Assembly: GCA_965219415.1 (NCBI GenBank)
Contig: CBDCNP010000002.1
Span: 2,144,001 to 2,208,000 of the forward strand
Direction of reading: 5' to 3'
Origin: Candidatus Marinacidobacterales bacterium
Lineage (GTDB): Bacteria; Acidobacteriota; Vicinamibacteria; Marinacidobacterales; DATDRI01
DNA length: 64,000 bases
The number at the start of each line of letters is the position of its first letter. Positions within the stretch are counted from its first letter, which is position 1. Below are positions 24 through 5,638 of this stretch, piece after piece. Under the pieces are notes generated by a model, which did no database searches, was not told the DNA's origin, and saw only the letters and a list, made by a program, of their open reading frames with translations. The position numbers and the translations under genes were made by a program.

Positions 24-845
24 TCAGTTCGTAGGACTCTCCGCCGTTTCCGTCCCGTCGAGGCGAGCGAGAATCAAATCTCGCCGCTTGAGCACCAGCT
101 TCTGATTGTAGCCCCAGATGTATTTCTTGATCGCGTTCTTGATCTCTTTGTCGCTCAGCGAGCGAAGTCGCTCGACGACGTCAGCCCGGTAGCTCGTCGG
201 CCAGCGAACCCGCTCCGCATCGTAGGGAACACACCAGAACTTGGCGTGGGTACCGATCCCGGCACCGTTGAGATCGTTCAACAACCTGCGATAGCCCCGA
301 AACGTCCTGGAGTTATCGATGAGAACCAAACGGTGCTCGGGAGTCATCATCGCGTTGTTCAGATGGCGATCGATGTTGGCGATGAGATCGTCGAAGAGCC
401 ACATCATGCTCACCTGTGCACGCCAGCTCTCTAGGTTCTCGGGAGTCCCTTCAAACTTCTCCATCGTTTCCCCGGTCACCCAGAGCTGGAGACCGCCCTT
501 TCTACCCCCGATGCGCCGAGCCACCGTAGGTGGGACCATCCCCAACTGGAGGAGCTTGTCCAGCTGGTAGGCAGCGACCTCCCCGCGATAGGTATCATGC
601 TCCTTGTCAACCTTCTTGAAGACCGCATAGCGTGTCTCCCCGTTCCACTCCAGGGTGACCTTCTCAGGGTTCGTGACTCCGGTACCCAGCTTTTTGCGGT
701 CTACGACATCGGCTTCCTTTAGAAACTCCTCTAGCTCTTGGGCATCGGGCCACAGCGGGGGAAGGGGAGGCGATTCCTGCCCGCGCGCGGGAGCTACGAA
801 TGCGAAGCTCAGAATCAGGACGAAGTACTCGAGACGATATTTCAC
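24..845 (-). CDS. Secreted atypical kinase-fold protein (PI3/4-kinase/HipA/CotH/Fam20-like)
   Basis: Signal peptide (MKYRLEYFVLILSFAFVAPARG); GTGVT loop, AVFK lysine, EVAAY helix, DRHLNN catalytic loop, LIDNS metal-binding motif. Confidence 0.7.
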   Translation of the reverse strand: MKYRLEYFVLILSFAFVAPARGQESPPLPPLWPDAQELEEFLKEADVVDRKKLGTGVTNPEKVTLEWNGETRYAVFKKVDKEHDTYRGEVAAYQLDKLLQLGMVPPTVARRIGGRKGGLQLWVTGETMEKFEGTPENLESWRAQVSMMWLFDDLIANIDRHLNNAMMTPEHRLVLIDNSRTFRGYRRLLNDLNGAGIGTHAKFWCVPYDAERVRWPTSYRADVVERLRSLSDKEIKNAIKKYIWGYNQKLVLKRRDLILARLDGTETAESPTN

Positions 846-936: not shown

Positions 937-3748
937 ATGAGCCTGCCGGCCCTCCTATGGGTACCGCTCGCGACGATCGTTTTCGACCTTCCGCTTCTCG
1001 GCTCCCCACTCACGTCTCCCATACTCGACGAGTTGAAAAACTTGAACGGTGTCGCCGCTATCCAGGCGGACAGTGGCGCTCTCCATTTAGAAGTCGAGGC
1101 GCATGGCTTGGTGCGGCTTTCGGCGATATCGGGAACGATTCGCCGTCATACCGTCAAGACCGAGATCGACTACGACCGCGTCCCTCTCGGCGCGCATACC
1201 ATCTTCGAAATGGATGCGGGTCAATGCTTCAATTGCAGTGAGGGGCCACTGAAGCAGCGACTATCGCGCAAGGATTGGGTCAACCGGTGGTCGGTCGTAG
1301 ACTACGCGGCCAAGGGTCGGCTGCGCTTTCGCATCACGCCCCGGGGTGATGCACAGCTGGCAGCATTAGGAAGACTTCCGTTCGAGGACATTCTCTTCAC
1401 CGCTCGTTACGATACGACCGAGCGGGTGAGTCTCGACTGGCCGACAGGATCGGTCCACTGGCGCAGTAGCGAAGAGGGAGCGAGGTGGGAATCGAGCCGT
1501 TCCTTGAAGCCCCTCCTCGTCTTTCCAACCGCGGGCACGTGAGAGGGCGGCCTCTTCGTGAGAACGGGTCCGTTCTCCGAACCCACAGTGGTCACTCTCA
1601 TCAACCGATACTTCGTGCCGGTGCACGTGGACAACCAAGAATGGTCAGAACCGCGCTACGGGATCAAGCCCGGGGAAGAGAATGCTTACATTATTCTAGA
1701 GACGCCGCCCGGCCAACCCACCGGCCAGCCGGCTCGCCAGAACGACGCGCCCGACGTCGTCTTCCTCAAGACACTGAGCCAAGTACTCGAGCCCGAGAAT
1801 ACGCGAGCTACCCTCAGAAGGTGTGGAAATAAAGTAAAGGCGGAGTAACCTTCCGCGTCACGAAACACGGCGTGAAGGGGCCAACGGAAGGAGACACCGC
1901 CATGAAGGAAAAGACCACAAGACGACGGAGCTCGTCAAGGGTGGCTTGGGAGTCGCTGGAGAAGTGGGCGAGGCTCGAGATCCAGGATTGGGTGCAGGAG
2001 CTGATGGTAGCCGAAGTCACGGAGCTTCTCGGGCGTGAGAAATCGGAGAGACGGAAGCCCGTGGACACAACGGCGGGCTATCGAAATGGATACGGTAAGC
2101 CTCGGAAGCTGACGATGAGCGTGGGCACGGTGACGGTTCGCCGGCCGAGAGTACGGGACGTGGAGGAGAGGTTCGAAAGTCGAGTGCTTCCGCTGTTCAA
2201 GCGTCGGAGCGAAACGGTGAGCGAGTTGATTCCGGAGCTGTACCTGCATGGATTAGCTCACGGAGATTTCGATCTGGCGCTCCGCGGGCTTCTAGGGGAG
2301 GACGCTCCACTTTCTCCCAGCACGGTGTCGCGGCTGAAACAGAAATGGCAGGGAGAGTACGAGCAGTGGCTAGCTCGCCCACTGGATGAACTCGAGCTCG
2401 TGTCCCTGTGGGTAGATGGCGTGTACGTGAAGGCCGGCCTTGAGAAGGACAAGGCGGCGGTGCTAGTTGCGGTTGGTGGCCTGTCCGACGGGACGAAAAT
2501 CGTCCTGACGCTGGAGGCCGGGCATCGAGAATCCGAAGCGTCATGGTCGTCGCTGCTACGGAGACTGAAGAAGCGCGGTCTGAGATGTCCCCGTTTGGTG
2601 ATCGGTGACGGTCATCTCGGCATCTGGGCCGCGACCCGAAACGTATTTCCAGAAGCTGAGGAGCAGCGGTGCTGGAACCACCGAATCCTCAACGTACTGG
2701 ACCGGATTCCGAAAAGGGACCAGGCGCAGGCCAAGCCGCTGTTGACGGCGATCCCCTACCCCACCAGCCTGCAGGAGTGCGAGACGAAGAAGGCCAAGTT
2801 CCAGGATTGGTGCTTGCGCAAGGGTCTTCCGGGGGCCGCGCACGTGCTCGACGAGGACTGGGAGCGGATGGTCAGCTTCTATTCCTTTCCCAAGCCTCAC
2901 TGGCAACACCTTCGCACGAGCAACGTCGTGGAGTCACCGGTTCGCTGTACTGAGATTGAGAACGGATGCGGCCAAAAGGTTCAAGAAAATCGAGTCCGCC
3001 ACTGCGACAATCTTCAAACTGCTTCTGGTTGCGGAGAAGAATTTTCGCCGGCTCAACGCACCGGAGCTGATGCGAGAGGTTCACCTGGGCGTTCGATTTG
3101 AAGATGGAGACAGGGTAACGGAGTCGTCGAAGGTTGCTGCTGCCTGAACTTTTTTACACACCTATTGACAAGAGCTCGAATACGCTCGCCGCACTCCTTG
3201 CGTTCTTGGAAAAACATCCCGAGTTCCACCAACCGTGGCCGGAGCTCGAGGGGCTCGATAGAGACTCGGATCCGTCCTCGCGCACCAGGCGCGCGGAGCT
3301 TCTTTTGGAAGAGGGTAAGGCCGAGCAGGCGCTCGAGCTATTGAGGGCGCCAGGTCTACCCGAGCGAGCGGTTCTAGTTCGTGCGCGCGCCTATCATCGC
3401 TTGAAGCGCCTTGATGAGGCCGCGGCCGAGCTCGACCGTGCGCCCGATTCACTCGAGGTATCGCTCGAGGAGATTCGACTCGCTTACGATCGAGGGCAGC
3501 GCAAAGAGGCGGCGGATGCGCTCGACGAGCTCTTGTCCCAACATGGCAGCAATCTGAAAGCGGCAGAGGCCTATTACCTTCGCGGTTGGCTCTACCACCT
3601 CGAAGGCGACGACGCTCGGGCCATAGACGTGTGGTCCGACGGGATCGAACGGCACCCGCCGACGTCTTCGCTTTTCAGCCAGAAGGCCTACCTCACGCTC
3701 ATCCGGGCAAACTGGGAGCCCCCGGACAGCGTCGACCAACCACGCTAG
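937..3748 (+). CDS. Putative selenoprotein (CxxC/HMA-like + Sec thioredoxin-like + TPR), interrupted by IS256; join(937..1804,3186..3748), UGA at 1540..1542
   Basis: ORFs 937..1542 and 1558..1848 share a frame separated only by TGA, in Trx-like context KPLLVFPTAGT-U-EGGLFVRTGPFSEPTVVTLINRYFVPVHVD; after IS excision LEPENT joins LAALLAFLEKHPEF and the TPR helices of ORF 3134..3748. Confidence 0.8.
1555..1581 (+). promoter_or_regulatory. Candidate bacterial SECIS hairpin
   Basis: TTCG-T(bulge)-GAGAACG-GGTC-CGTTCTC-CGAA; GGUC loop about 25 nt after the UGA, resembling the E. coli fdhF SECIS. Confidence 0.72.
1805..3177 (+). mobile_element. IS256-family insertion sequence (1373 bp)
   Basis: Imperfect terminal IRs GAGCTACCCTCAGAAGGTGTGGAAATAAAGT / rc GAGCTCTTGTCAATAGGTGTGTAAAAAAGT; 8-bp TSD GAATACGC at 1797..1804 and 3178..3185. 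Confidence 0.93.
1902..3147 (+). pseudogene. IS256-family DDE transposase, +1 frameshift near 2940
   Basis: YRNGY, WVDG, IGDG, QRCWNH and RTSNVVES motifs; C-terminus (RTDAAKRFKK...) in another frame after an extra G. Confidence 0.88.
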
Positions 3749-3937: not shown

Positions 3938-4741
3938 ATGAGAACTACATTCACGTGGATGGCGACCGCTCTGGGAGTGCTTTTCCTGGCGGTGATGCTG
4001 GTTCCAGCTTGCAGCGACAGCGATGACAATCCAATACCCACGGGATCTTCGGCCATCTCGCCGTCGTCGAGCCCGGGGCTGGTGTCGACGAGCGCAGTTC
4101 CTCAACGAGATAGCGACAGCGAAAGTGACGATAGTGAGAGCGACGACTCCGAGGGTGAGGACAGTGAAAGCGACGACTCCGCAAGCGAGGACGATGACAG
4201 TAGCGACGACCTCAGCGGCGACGGCGGTCTCGCGGACGGCGCTCTCGGGGGCGACGACCTTGATGACAATGAAAGTCGCGTCCGCGATGTCCTCTTGTCG
4301 GCCGATGCCTGCCCCGGCTCTTTCACCGTTGGAGGCACGGTAGTCAACACCACAGCGGAAACGCGGTCCGACTGCGAGCCCGGCTGTGATGGTCACTTCG
4401 AGCGTCTCACCCCGGATCAGTTTTGCCCGTTCCTCGTGGCGGGGCTTCCCATCCGGGCCCGGGGGACCAACGACGCCGGTACCCTGAACGCTTCCCGGGT
4501 TCGAATCGACGATGAGATAAAAGTGACCGGTACCATCTCCGTCGGTAGTGCCGCGTTGGCACCCGGCACGCCGTTCACATTATCGGTTCTCGGCTTGGGC
4601 GACTTGCAATTCGTCGTGGCGCCGGGTGCGTTGATCGAGACCTTTGCTGCAGGAAGCACCGTCCGTGTGGAGGGCGTGGTTCCACCCTTGACCGCCGGGG
4701 GCGGATTGCCAACTTTCGGCGCCACCGAGATACAAAACTAG
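3938..4741 (+). CDS. Lipoprotein with Asp/Ser/Glu-rich repeat and DUF5666-like beta domains
   Basis: RBS GGAG; lipobox-like VPAC; DSESD repeats; VRVEG/IRARG strands typical of DUF5666. Confidence 0.6.
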   Translation: MRTTFTWMATALGVLFLAVMLVPACSDSDDNPIPTGSSAISPSSSPGLVSTSAVPQRDSDSESDDSESDDSEGEDSESDDSASEDDDSSDDLSGDGGLADGALGGDDLDDNESRVRDVLLSADACPGSFTVGGTVVNTTAETRSDCEPGCDGHFERLTPDQFCPFLVAGLPIRARGTNDAGTLNASRVRIDDEIKVTGTISVGSAALAPGTPFTLSVLGLGDLQFVVAPGALIETFAAGSTVRVEGVVPPLTAGGGLPTFGATEIQN

Positions 4742-4764
4742 CCTTCCTCGGATCAAAGCAGTAG

Positions 4765-4798
4765 GAGTTGGGGAGGCGGACCGTCGCTTCCCCAACTC
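4765..4798. terminator. 14-bp stem-loop after the lipoprotein gene
   Basis: GAGTTGGGGAGGCG-GACCGT-CGCTTCCCCAACTC. Confidence 0.5.
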
Positions 4799-4864
4799 TC
4801 CTTCATTTCTGGACAACCCAGACAACACACCGTATAAGCTTTCCCCTTGCGGAGGTGTGAACCC

Positions 4865-5638
4865 ATGAACAAAGCAACCCCGGTCGCTTGCGATCGCTTG
4901 GAAACCGGCGCCTATTGGCGCGTCTTCCTGGATCGTCCCGAGGGCAACATTCTGGACGGCGAGATGTTCGAGGCACTGGAGACGGTCTTTCGGCAGGCAA
5001 GTAAGGACAAAAACCTCAAGGCACTTTGCATCGAAGGGCGCGGAAACCATTTCTCTTTCGGATCCAGCATTCAAGAGCACCTGCCCGGGCACGCCGAGAA
5101 CATGCTTCGCGGCTTCCATAGAATGCTCGAAACCATGTTCGACGGCTCCTATATCGTCCTCGCGGCAGTGCGGGGGCACTGCCTCGGAGGGGGGCTGGAG
5201 TTGGTGAGCTGTTGCCATCGTGTCTTCGCGTCGAGCAACGCGCGGTTGGGGCAACCCGACATCATGCTCGGCGTCTTTCCACCGGTGGCGTCGGTCATTC
5301 TTCCCGAGCGAGTGGGTCGGGCGAACGCGGAAGAGCTGTGCCTTTCTGGGAGGAGTGTCACCGGCGAGGAAGGACTCTCGATGGGCTTAGTTGATGTCGT
5401 CGCCGATGATCCGAGTGACACCGCGTTGGCCTATGCCAAGGAACACTTGCTCCCTCACTCAGCGTCGAGCCTACGATACGCGGTTCGCGCGACCCGGCAC
5501 GGCCGAAGGGAGCGGTTCTTAGCCGAGGTCGGCAAGGTCGAGCGGATTTACCTCGACGAGTTAATGAAAACACACGATGCAGTGGAAGGACTAGAAGCCT
5601 TTATCGAAAAGCGTCCTCCCCAGTGGAAAAACGCTTGA
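4865..5638 (+). CDS. dch: Cyclohexa-1,5-diene-1-carbonyl-CoA hydratase-like crotonase
   Basis: HFSFGSSIQEHLP, VRGHCLGGGLE, SASSLRYAVRA and LYLDELMKTHDAVEGLEAF resemble Thauera-type Dch. Confidence 0.75.
   Translation: MNKATPVACDRLETGAYWRVFLDRPEGNILDGEMFEALETVFRQASKDKNLKALCIEGRGNHFSFGSSIQEHLPGHAENMLRGFHRMLETMFDGSYIVLAAVRGHCLGGGLELVSCCHRVFASSNARLGQPDIMLGVFPPVASVILPERVGRANAEELCLSGRSVTGEEGLSMGLVDVVADDPSDTALAYAKEHLLPHSASSLRYAVRATRHGRRERFLAEVGKVERIYLDELMKTHDAVEGLEAFIEKRPPQWKNA

Follow-up and report, generated by a model that had tools for sequence, protein, structure and literature searches.

A TGA codon stands in the middle of what would otherwise be one continuous reading frame in the genome of a Candidatus Marinacidobacterales bacterium (phylum Acidobacteriota), and further downstream the same frame is broken again by a mobile element. 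Does the TGA end a gene, or is it decoded as selenocysteine (Sec, U), and if so, in what kind of protein? The locus covers positions 937 to 3748 of a stretch of 64,000 nucleotides (nt) (assembly GCA_965219415.1, contig CBDCNP010000002.1, positions 2,144,001 to 2,208,000 of the forward strand), the whole of which we call the window. An earlier look at this DNA from its letters alone, here the sequence-only reading, had taken the locus for a hidden multidomain selenoprotein with an insertion sequence (IS) of the IS256 family inside it. We consider it highly probable that the gene belongs to a genuine Sec-decoding family whose copy in the window is disrupted by the IS, and it is very likely that this selenoprotein family is real and so far unannotated. 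Its members would be bacterial selenoproteins of about 450-500 amino acids (aa), found mainly in metagenome genomes of marine Acidobacteriota, in which a UGA (codon 202 in the window) would be recoded to selenocysteine via a SelB-type selenocysteine insertion sequence (SECIS) hairpin that lies inside the coding sequence. The predicted order of domains is a Cys-free HMA-like domain, a second HMA-like domain with a CxxC motif, a thioredoxin-like (Trx-like) domain of the Thioredoxin_7/DUF255 type and tetratricopeptide repeats (TPR).

A reading frame that continues across a TGA codon

The open reading frame (ORF) and its translation confirm that the TGA at 1540-1542 lies in an open frame and that the same frame goes on directly after it with EGGLFVRTGPFSEPTVVTLINRYFVPVHVD. 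Upstream, the CFNC motif that had been placed at residues 97-100 is found there, its Cys codons being TGC 1225-1227 and TGC 1234-1236. Downstream, joining 1804 to 3186 across the IS preserves the frame and gives 476 codons with TPR repeats at the end, as the sequence-only reading had expected from removal of the IS256 element; this is borne out by the delimitation of the element (1373 bp), by contigs with an empty site and by P0027, an uninterrupted database fragment, 99% identical, in which the junction …EPENT-LAALLAF… is also present. The gene occurs once in the genome. Its parts, with the hairpin discussed below, are the following.

937-1539, + strand: first 201 codons, an ORF with a short hydrophobic N-terminus, two HMA-like domains, a linker and Trx strand 1 ending in FPTAGT
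1225-1236, + strand: CxxC (Cys97, Cys100) at the strand-1/helix-1 junction of the second HMA-like domain, invariant in the alignments
1540-1542, + strand: in-frame TGA, residue 202, with high probability read as selenocysteine, kept in all 18 loci compared
1543-1804, + strand: remainder of the Trx-like domain up to the insertion point, with the UEGG motif, helix 1 and an invariant Thr-Pro at residues 256-257
1560-1577, + strand: SECIS-like hairpin GAGAACG-GGUC-CGUUCUC, with a 7-bp stem (1560-1566 paired with 1571-1577) and a GGUC loop (1567-1570)
3186-3748, + strand: C-terminal 187 codons and stop, with TPR repeats matched by Pfam and a conserved tail (…IR.NWELP..VDQ), the frame being continuous with 1804

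At the TGA itself, where TGG or TGC would have pointed to an ordinary sense codon, contigs of four sequencing runs from four studies show TGA at 1540-1542 and no alternative letter.

Conservation of the TGA codon and its flanks

We compared the window with 17 further loci, namely one from a Candidatus Marinacidobacterales metagenome-assembled genome (MAG; 83% identity), one from a genome of the same phylum (48%) and 15 from metagenome contigs (50-83%), so that the 18 loci, window included, comprise 16 distinct nucleotide sequences. In every one of the 18, the TGA follows directly on …FPTA(G/S)T. The homologues thus keep TGA at residue 202, with neither Trp nor another sense codon in its place, and the protein does not come to an end there: the frames around the TGA are open for 329-594 codons, both parts lie in one frame at all 18 loci, and none of the 17 related ORFs contains a second TGA. 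Translated through the TGA, the full-length proteins share 42-52% identity with the reference over their whole length, on both sides of the codon. Furthermore, among the 16 distinct sequences the codons +1 to +5 (E-G-G-L-F) that follow the TGA have five variable sites, all of them third positions and all synonymous, which argues that this spacer is translated in the upstream frame. Judging from these comparisons, purifying selection is apparently acting on both sides of the TGA.

The residues that would form a redox or metal site are equally constant. The CxxC (Cys97/Cys100) is invariant in the aligned sequences (20/20 and 13/13), and U-E-G-G, the U-x-x-G motif without a resolving Cys that had been read off the window, is present in 13/13 full-length sequences; Cys97, Cys100 and Sec202 are the only Cys or Sec positions conserved across the family. 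The family is rare, with two carriers, the window's genome included, among 401 sampled Acidobacteriota genomes.

A hairpin inside the coding sequence

The hairpin after the TGA is 18 nt long, lies inside the coding sequence and begins 17 nt after the UGA, with a spacing of 24 nt from the UGA to the loop; its GGUC is also the apical loop of the SECIS of E. coli fdhF. It is formed by codons +7 to +11 (R-T-G-P-F) with flanking bases. Codons +8 to +11 are each represented by a single codon in all 16 distinct sequences despite their 4-, 4-, 4- and 2-fold degeneracy, and at codon +7 15 sequences have AGA and the other has AGG, where a G.U pair is retained. Outside the hairpin, in a span of 52 codons, all 21 invariant residues with degenerate codons are encoded by 2-4 different codons. 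Synonymous sites that are frozen within the hairpin and free elsewhere argue for selection on the RNA and not on the protein.

The bacterial SECIS (bSECIS) model, as set out in the legend to Fig. 2 of PMC13188914, has a loop of 3-9 nt, a stem of 4-16 bp, a G in the first two loop positions, 16-37 nt from the UGA to the loop and a minimum free energy (MFE) of -7.5 kcal/mol or lower. Within the terms of that legend the hairpin agrees with the model on all four points (loop of 4 nt with GG first, stem of 7 bp, spacing of 24 nt, MFE of -9.5 kcal/mol). A hairpin that fits the published bacterial model thus stands downstream of UGA 1540-1542; the sequence-only reading had pointed out that bacteria decode UGA as Sec when a SECIS follows. 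Comparison with the hairpin that follows the UGA of the genome's own selD revealed no obvious common loop and was uninformative.

Selenocysteine machinery of the host

The host genome contains selA, selB, selC and selD, all four of the genes in question. Its tRNA-Sec (selC) scores 69.7 bits and has the anticodon TCA, and selA (570 bits), selB (376 bits) and selD (328 bits) are all above their curated cut-offs. The selD gene of this genome (locus L019, TGA at about 1531) has an in-frame TGA of its own at the canonical position, in the motif CAGUASK, which argues that Sec decoding operates in this organism. In both of the other whole genomes with the gene, selB and tRNA-Sec likewise score above cut-off.

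Architecture of the encoded protein

An AlphaFold2 model was made for an intact homologue of 468 aa from an alignment of 13 sequences (predicted local distance difference test, pLDDT, 84.7; predicted template modelling score, pTM, 0.82). In this model a Trx fold at about residues 168-296 is followed by helical repeats to residue 453, and within the Trx fold a strand at 193-198 leads into a helix at 203-210 that starts at the Sec. Exhaustive structure comparison of residues 168-296 returned 2lst (Z 13.4), 3f9u (Z 13.2, root-mean-square deviation (rmsd) 2.3 over 115 residues) and DsbH 2ju5 (Z 11.8), and that of residues 297-464 returned TPR structures at Z 14-16. With the whole model, the top Foldseek match was E. 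coli YbbN/CnoX (3qou; E 1.8e-6, probability 1.00, 296 columns), next came the Salmonella YbbN orthologue (295-301 columns for 3qou/3qdn) and then TPR proteins.

Sequence profiles give a compatible picture. Pfam places TPR_16 (E 5e-11), TPR_14 and TPR_6 above cut-off, and Thioredoxin_7 (PF13899, 14.2-20.7 bits) and Thioredox_DsbH/DUF255 (PF03190, 16.6-20.3 bits) below the gathering threshold of 27; no match to the classical thioredoxin family PF00085 was listed, and TPR_20 appeared only at E 0.09. The family profile, run against the sequences of the PDB, found TPR proteins and weak Trx matches only (3ira, E 0.013; 3f9u, E 0.85). Aligned with the Thioredoxin_7/DUF255/DsbD-type proteins of the phylum, the U falls without gaps on the first, nucleophilic Cys of their CxxC and Gly205 on the second, which supports the proposal that the UGA occupies the position of the attacking Cys in a thioredoxin motif; the Trx-like domain itself has no CxxC redox motif and has U-E-G-G instead. 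Six weak matches from the phylum (L026-L031) were set aside as ordinary CxxC proteins of the Thioredoxin_7/DUF255/DsbD-like kind and not members of the family; L030, the only one of them with a TGA, owes it to a spurious low-complexity frame.

The sequence-only reading had been reminded of the UGSG motif of selenoprotein N. Closer comparators are the Thioredoxin_7/DUF255 proteins, the VPGUxxT family (a weak match) and, for the combination of Trx and TPR, YbbN/CnoX. With Thioredoxin_7/DUF255, including the DsbD C-terminal-like proteins and DsbH, the family shares the fold and the frame of a K-P-hydrophobic strand, the active site and ...F-S-D/E-P...V-P-V-.-V-D; it differs in having U-E-G-G and not C-x-x-C, hence no resolving Cys, in its HMA-like and TPR fusions and in its sub-threshold scores. 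The VPGUxxT type 2 family (NF041383, 'hypothetical protein OS_HP5' in Table 1 of PMC13188914) is likewise a Trx-like selenoprotein with a Sec that is not followed by a resolving Cys, and it is the best NCBIfam match, at 20.4-28.5 bits against a cut-off of 275 (E 1e-6 to 3e-4), with profile positions 2-67 aligned to residues ~170-240, the half of the Trx-like domain that contains the active site. Here, by contrast, the motif is TAGTUEGG and not VPGUxxT, and HMA-like and TPR domains are present. YbbN/CnoX has the same succession of a Trx domain and TPR, and some of its representatives, according to PMC10998233, have only one reactive Cys in a non-canonical active site and form mixed disulfides with clients; sequence identity is nevertheless only 16-18% and the domains are oriented differently (rmsd 23 Å), and the present family has a Trx domain of the Thioredoxin_7 type, Sec and an additional N-terminal tandem HMA-like module.

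In the model of the 468-aa homologue, this N-terminal module consists of two beta-alpha-beta-beta-alpha-beta units at residues 14-77 and 88-154; it was also modelled by itself from the first 155 residues of the window sequence (pLDDT 92.8). Its first unit matches the HMA structure of CsoZ (6ff1) at Z 8.3 with rmsd 2.0 over 62 residues, the HMA domains of ATP7B, Ccc2a, CadA, CopA, ZntA and NmerA match at Z 6.9-7.6, and Foldseek finds the tandem domains WLN5-6 of the Wilson ATPase ATP7B (2ew9) at E 2.3e-3. In the second unit, the CxxC is placed where strand 1 passes into helix 1 (the helix starts at residue 98), which is the CxxC site of canonical HMA domains; the first unit is without Cys. The N-terminal CxxC region is therefore HMA-like, as had been suspected, with two HMA-like folds and the CxxC in the second according to models and structure matches. 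To the HMA domains of CsoZ (6ff1), ATP7B WLN5-6 (2ew9), CopA (1p6t) and NmerA (2kt3) it is alike in its two consecutive ferredoxin-like units and in the CxxC junction, and it differs from them in the Cys-free first unit, in the motif A-G-x-C-F-x-C and in Pfam, where a match to HMA (PF00403) was not listed at E up to 1 in one scan or up to 0.1 in another.

Fragments in the protein databases

A word-indexed search of 5.8 billion proteins gave 43 matches, none of which crosses the TGA site: some are fragments of about 200 aa whose last residue directly precedes the TGA, and the others, of 160-283 aa and mostly near 260 aa, lie wholly beyond it. In a HMMER profile search of 1.84 billion representatives, the 15 matches below 1e-30 either end at profile position 201 or start at position 208 or later. 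When the 187 proteins returned were re-scored, 52 proved to be strong members of the family. For 33 of them FPTA[GS]T is the very end, 16 begin beyond the site, and the remaining three (P0017, P0049 and P0052) are internally deleted or frameshifted. The prediction that gene callers would split the gene is thus realised, and the databases hold only its ~200-aa and ~260-aa fragments, under the name 'hypothetical protein'. In P0017, residue ~80 is joined directly to residue ~222. Together with the IS insertion in the window, the deleted and frameshifted members suggest that the gene is dispensable and decaying in some populations.

More distant relatives do exist at full length. P0068, P0091, P0111 and P0141 combine a Trx-like domain with TPR and have no Cys at the site, and by sequence they look like a redox-inactive sister group. 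They measure 743 aa (P0068), 711 aa (P0091), 843 aa (P0141) and 358 aa (P0111); in the first three, a further domain of about 350 aa with repeated 'QRxDGSW'-like motifs forms the C-terminal part. A further set of proteins (P0094, P0154, P0176 and P0180; 280-294 aa) begins, with (M/V)LRAGPFSD, exactly where the C-terminal fragments of the family begin in the Trx fold, and one member of the cluster of 'MLRAGPFSD' fragments is labelled Planctomycetota. A profile of 'MLRAGPFSD' found no member in the 401 Acidobacteriota genomes, only TPR matches and the selenoprotein family itself. These Planctomycetota-labelled fragments may mark a second, more distant clade split by TGA, in which case the design could be older and wider than the Acidobacteriota clade.

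Alternative explanations

Several observations weigh against a Sec-decoding gene and have to be set beside the evidence above. The hairpin is invariant, and its sole change, one A-U to G.U, provides no compensatory covariation. Rfam, scanned with 1500-1640 at E values up to 10, returned nothing; since bacterial SECIS elements are poorly covered by Rfam, we did not weigh this null result against Sec. A Cys-containing orthologue was not found, 0 of the 52 strong members spanning the site, which is unusual for selenoproteins, nearly all of which have Cys homologues according to summaries of the field. The closest full-length relatives without Sec have Ala or another non-Cys residue at the site, from which it follows that a redox role is not general to the wider Trx and TPR group. 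The N-terminus varies by clade, being signal-peptide-like in some and only about 10 residues ahead of the first strand in others. In the phylum sample, 296 of 401 genomes (a tally that includes three unpublished genomes) have selB above cut-off; with selB so common, finding it in all three carriers is of little diagnostic value, and by the same profile evidence Sec use is widespread in Acidobacteriota. Among 24 listed runs, none was recorded as RNA. Finally, codon +6 could serve as a start in all 16 distinct sequences (GTG in 11, ATG in 5), and some 10 nt ahead of it there is a purine-rich GAGG/GAAGG stretch.

This start-like codon and the purine-rich stretch are the core of a reading in which there are two adjacent genes, the first stopping at TGA 1540 and the second restarting at a GTG/ATG 15 nt downstream, so that the products would be an HMA-like protein of 201 aa and, with a Trx remnant and TPR, another of about 270 aa. 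Gene callers in every database give exactly these two split products, and the start-like codon +6 with the GAGG-like stretch accounts for the second ORF that they find each time. The 15-nt spacer, though, evolves as coding sequence in the upstream frame, with its five variable sites all synonymous third positions, and its Gly-Gly is conserved in a distant relative that has no stop, where the U aligns with Ala (hhalign probability 98.7). A split would moreover cut the Trx fold between strand 1 and helix 1, at the catalytic position, the last base of the putative start codon belongs to the conserved hairpin, and the two parts share their frame at 18/18 loci. We regard two separate genes as very improbable; there is a small possibility, judged on the same codons, that internal initiation might occur in addition to Sec read-through. 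Marginally less probable still is that the UGA is read by something other than tRNA-Sec, be it a near-cognate or suppressor tRNA (Trp, Cys or Gly), a hairpin-stimulated event or an alternative code. The inserted residue is not identifiable from sequence alone, and a hairpin with no Rfam SECIS match could in principle stimulate generic read-through, but a code in which UGA is a sense codon is hard to reconcile with exactly one TGA per ORF of about 470 codons at 17/17 related loci. Within a Trx fold the codon takes the place of the catalytic Cys, the same genome uses TGA as Sec in SelD and has the complete Sec machinery, and the hairpin agrees with the bSECIS model of the Fig. 2 legend on all four points, G in the first loop positions included. 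Least probable of all, to the point of being negligible, is that the TGA is an inactivating mutation or a sequencing error in a decaying gene, with the continuity of the domains a relic. The window copy is indeed damaged by an IS, and P0017, P0049 and P0052 are damaged too; against this, the TGA is present at 18/18 loci of 42-85% protein identity with purifying selection before and after it, four runs from four studies show it in their contigs, and 33 independent database fragments end at the same residue. The comparative data effectively refute decay, as such divergence excludes copies of one assembly error. We therefore retain Sec decoding as the explanation of the TGA.

Possible function

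In a Sec-containing protein of this kind, the Trx-like domain would carry Sec in place of the nucleophilic Cys and Gly in place of the resolving Cys (U-E-G-G), and a lone selenolate opposite a Gly would not by itself run a classical dithiol cycle. We hypothesise that, as in the chaperedoxin YbbN/CnoX, the TPR domain would hold a client on which the selenolate would attack an electrophile, a disulfide or an oxidised thiol, and that the CxxC of the neighbouring HMA-like domain would resolve the selenenylsulfide that results. Within the Sec-decoding explanation, and by analogy with YbbN/CnoX, we put the chances of this two-step scheme at a little below even. Sec202, Cys97 and Cys100 could alternatively form a soft-metal or metalloid site together. 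A further and tentative idea, which we think rather unlikely, combines these: the family would have no Cys orthologues at all, and Sec and the HMA-borne CxxC would make up one Se/S/S centre, used for a selenium-dependent chaperedoxin relay or for binding soft metals, metalloids or selenium.

It is also conceivable, if somewhat improbable in our judgement, that the selenoprotein mainly handles a soft metal or metalloid (Cu(I), Hg(II), As(III) or selenium), with Sec202, Cys97 and Cys100 as one site and the TPR docking a partner. The tandem HMA-like folds match domains of Cu, Zn, Cd and Hg chaperones and ATPases (Z 6.9-8.3), the CxxC is at the canonical HMA position, and the conserved Cys and Sec are these three residues only; about 70% of predicted Sec interactions involve metals, by the figure given in the 2026 review PMC13188914. 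Set against a metal function are the lack of a Pfam HMA match at E up to 1, the first HMA-like domain without Cys and the lack of metal-resistance genes conserved beside the gene, the neighbourhoods differing between clades.

The disrupted copy and its mobile element

Three features account for the interruption of the gene in the window.

1797-1804, no strand: target-site duplication, left copy GAATACGC, an 8-bp direct repeat
1805-3177, + strand: IS256-family insertion sequence of 1373 bp, recognised by Pfam Transposase_mut (195 bits), inverted ends and copies in the genome
3178-3185, no strand: target-site duplication, right copy GAATACGC, an 8-bp direct repeat

The ends of the element are inverted repeats beginning with GAGCT, and its ORF is the one that matches Transposase_mut. 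At least 31 full-length copies at 99-100% identity, the window copy counted, are among the 41 matches listed in the 8.05-Mb genome (40 of 69 candidates were scored, the copy counts being lower bounds). This strong IS256-family expansion points to a recent transposition burst. A target duplication of 8-9 bp is expected of IS256. The element resembles that family in its Mutator-type transposase, terminal inverted repeats, 8-bp target duplication and many near-identical copies, and differs in that its transposase is frameshifted by a 1-nt insertion: other copies are 1372 bp long with an open frame of 437 aa, compared with 422 aa in the window, where there is one extra G near 2939. The extra G is absent from two other copies and from the collapsed contigs of four runs, and either the window copy of the IS is dead or the extra G is a homopolymer assembly error.

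In contigs of three other sequencing runs, from other studies, 1796 is joined directly to 3178, so that 1381 bases are skipped; these are the IS and one copy of the repeat, and the 8 letters at the empty-site joint fit both sides. In a fourth run, the IS junction is present on a contig. The insertion in the window gene is a recent polymorphism, with intact alleles in other samples. Read-through of the window copy would stop 14 codons into the IS and yield a product without the TPR domain; the window gene is thus inactivated, or at least deprived of its TPR domain, through a recent IS256-family insertion after codon 289.

Flanking the gene in the window are genes at 24-845 (- strand) and 3938-4741 (+ strand). 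The upstream neighbour is divergent, of about 272 aa and with a signal-peptide-like start, and the product of the downstream one begins in a signal/lipoprotein-like manner and contains an extended Asp/Ser/Glu-rich stretch. The synteny of both genes holds for the 83%-identical Marinacidobacterales locus (L032, 2095-2910 on the - strand and 4290-5405 on the + strand) but not for the more distant loci. No neighbour gene is conserved across clades; the neighbourhoods differ, and there is no operon partner that could be used.

A family apparently not yet described

The sequence-only reading did not recognise the architecture as that of a described family, and our searches agree with it. No model in Pfam or NCBIfam covers the selenoprotein family, and it is absent from the 119 families and subfamilies of Table 1 in the 2026 review PMC13188914, none of which has this architecture or TPR; by sequence, the nearest entry there would be the VPGUxxT family, whose model the present family fails. 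The main texts of PMC13188914, PMC12013277, PMC2398784 and PMC13326102 make no mention of TPR selenoproteins, although supplementary family tables could list the family (PMC2398784 was checked for 'TPR' only, the other three also for 'tetratricopeptide'), and nothing relevant was found in the literature on Trx-like/TPR bacterial selenoproteins or on selenoproteins of marine Acidobacteriota. In the ESM Atlas a homologue falls in an unnamed cluster of 125 members without a Pfam family, and the database records of the family, ocean-survey records included, are each a 'hypothetical protein' in Acidobacteriota MAGs.

Selenoproteins with a Trx fold are well known, and what seems to be new is this family with its Sec-Gly active site, its HMA-borne CxxC and its TPR. 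A Sec-Gly site without a resolving Cys is a natural test of how a lone selenolate is recycled in a Trx fold. For the annotation of marine Acidobacteriota genomes, the paired fragments are to be merged and marked as Sec-containing. Moreover, the lack of Cys forms would hide the family from searches for Sec/Cys pairs, which are the main strategy that is independent of SECIS, and the family therefore suggests a blind spot in current inventories of selenoproteomes and bears on the question of why Sec has not given way to Cys.

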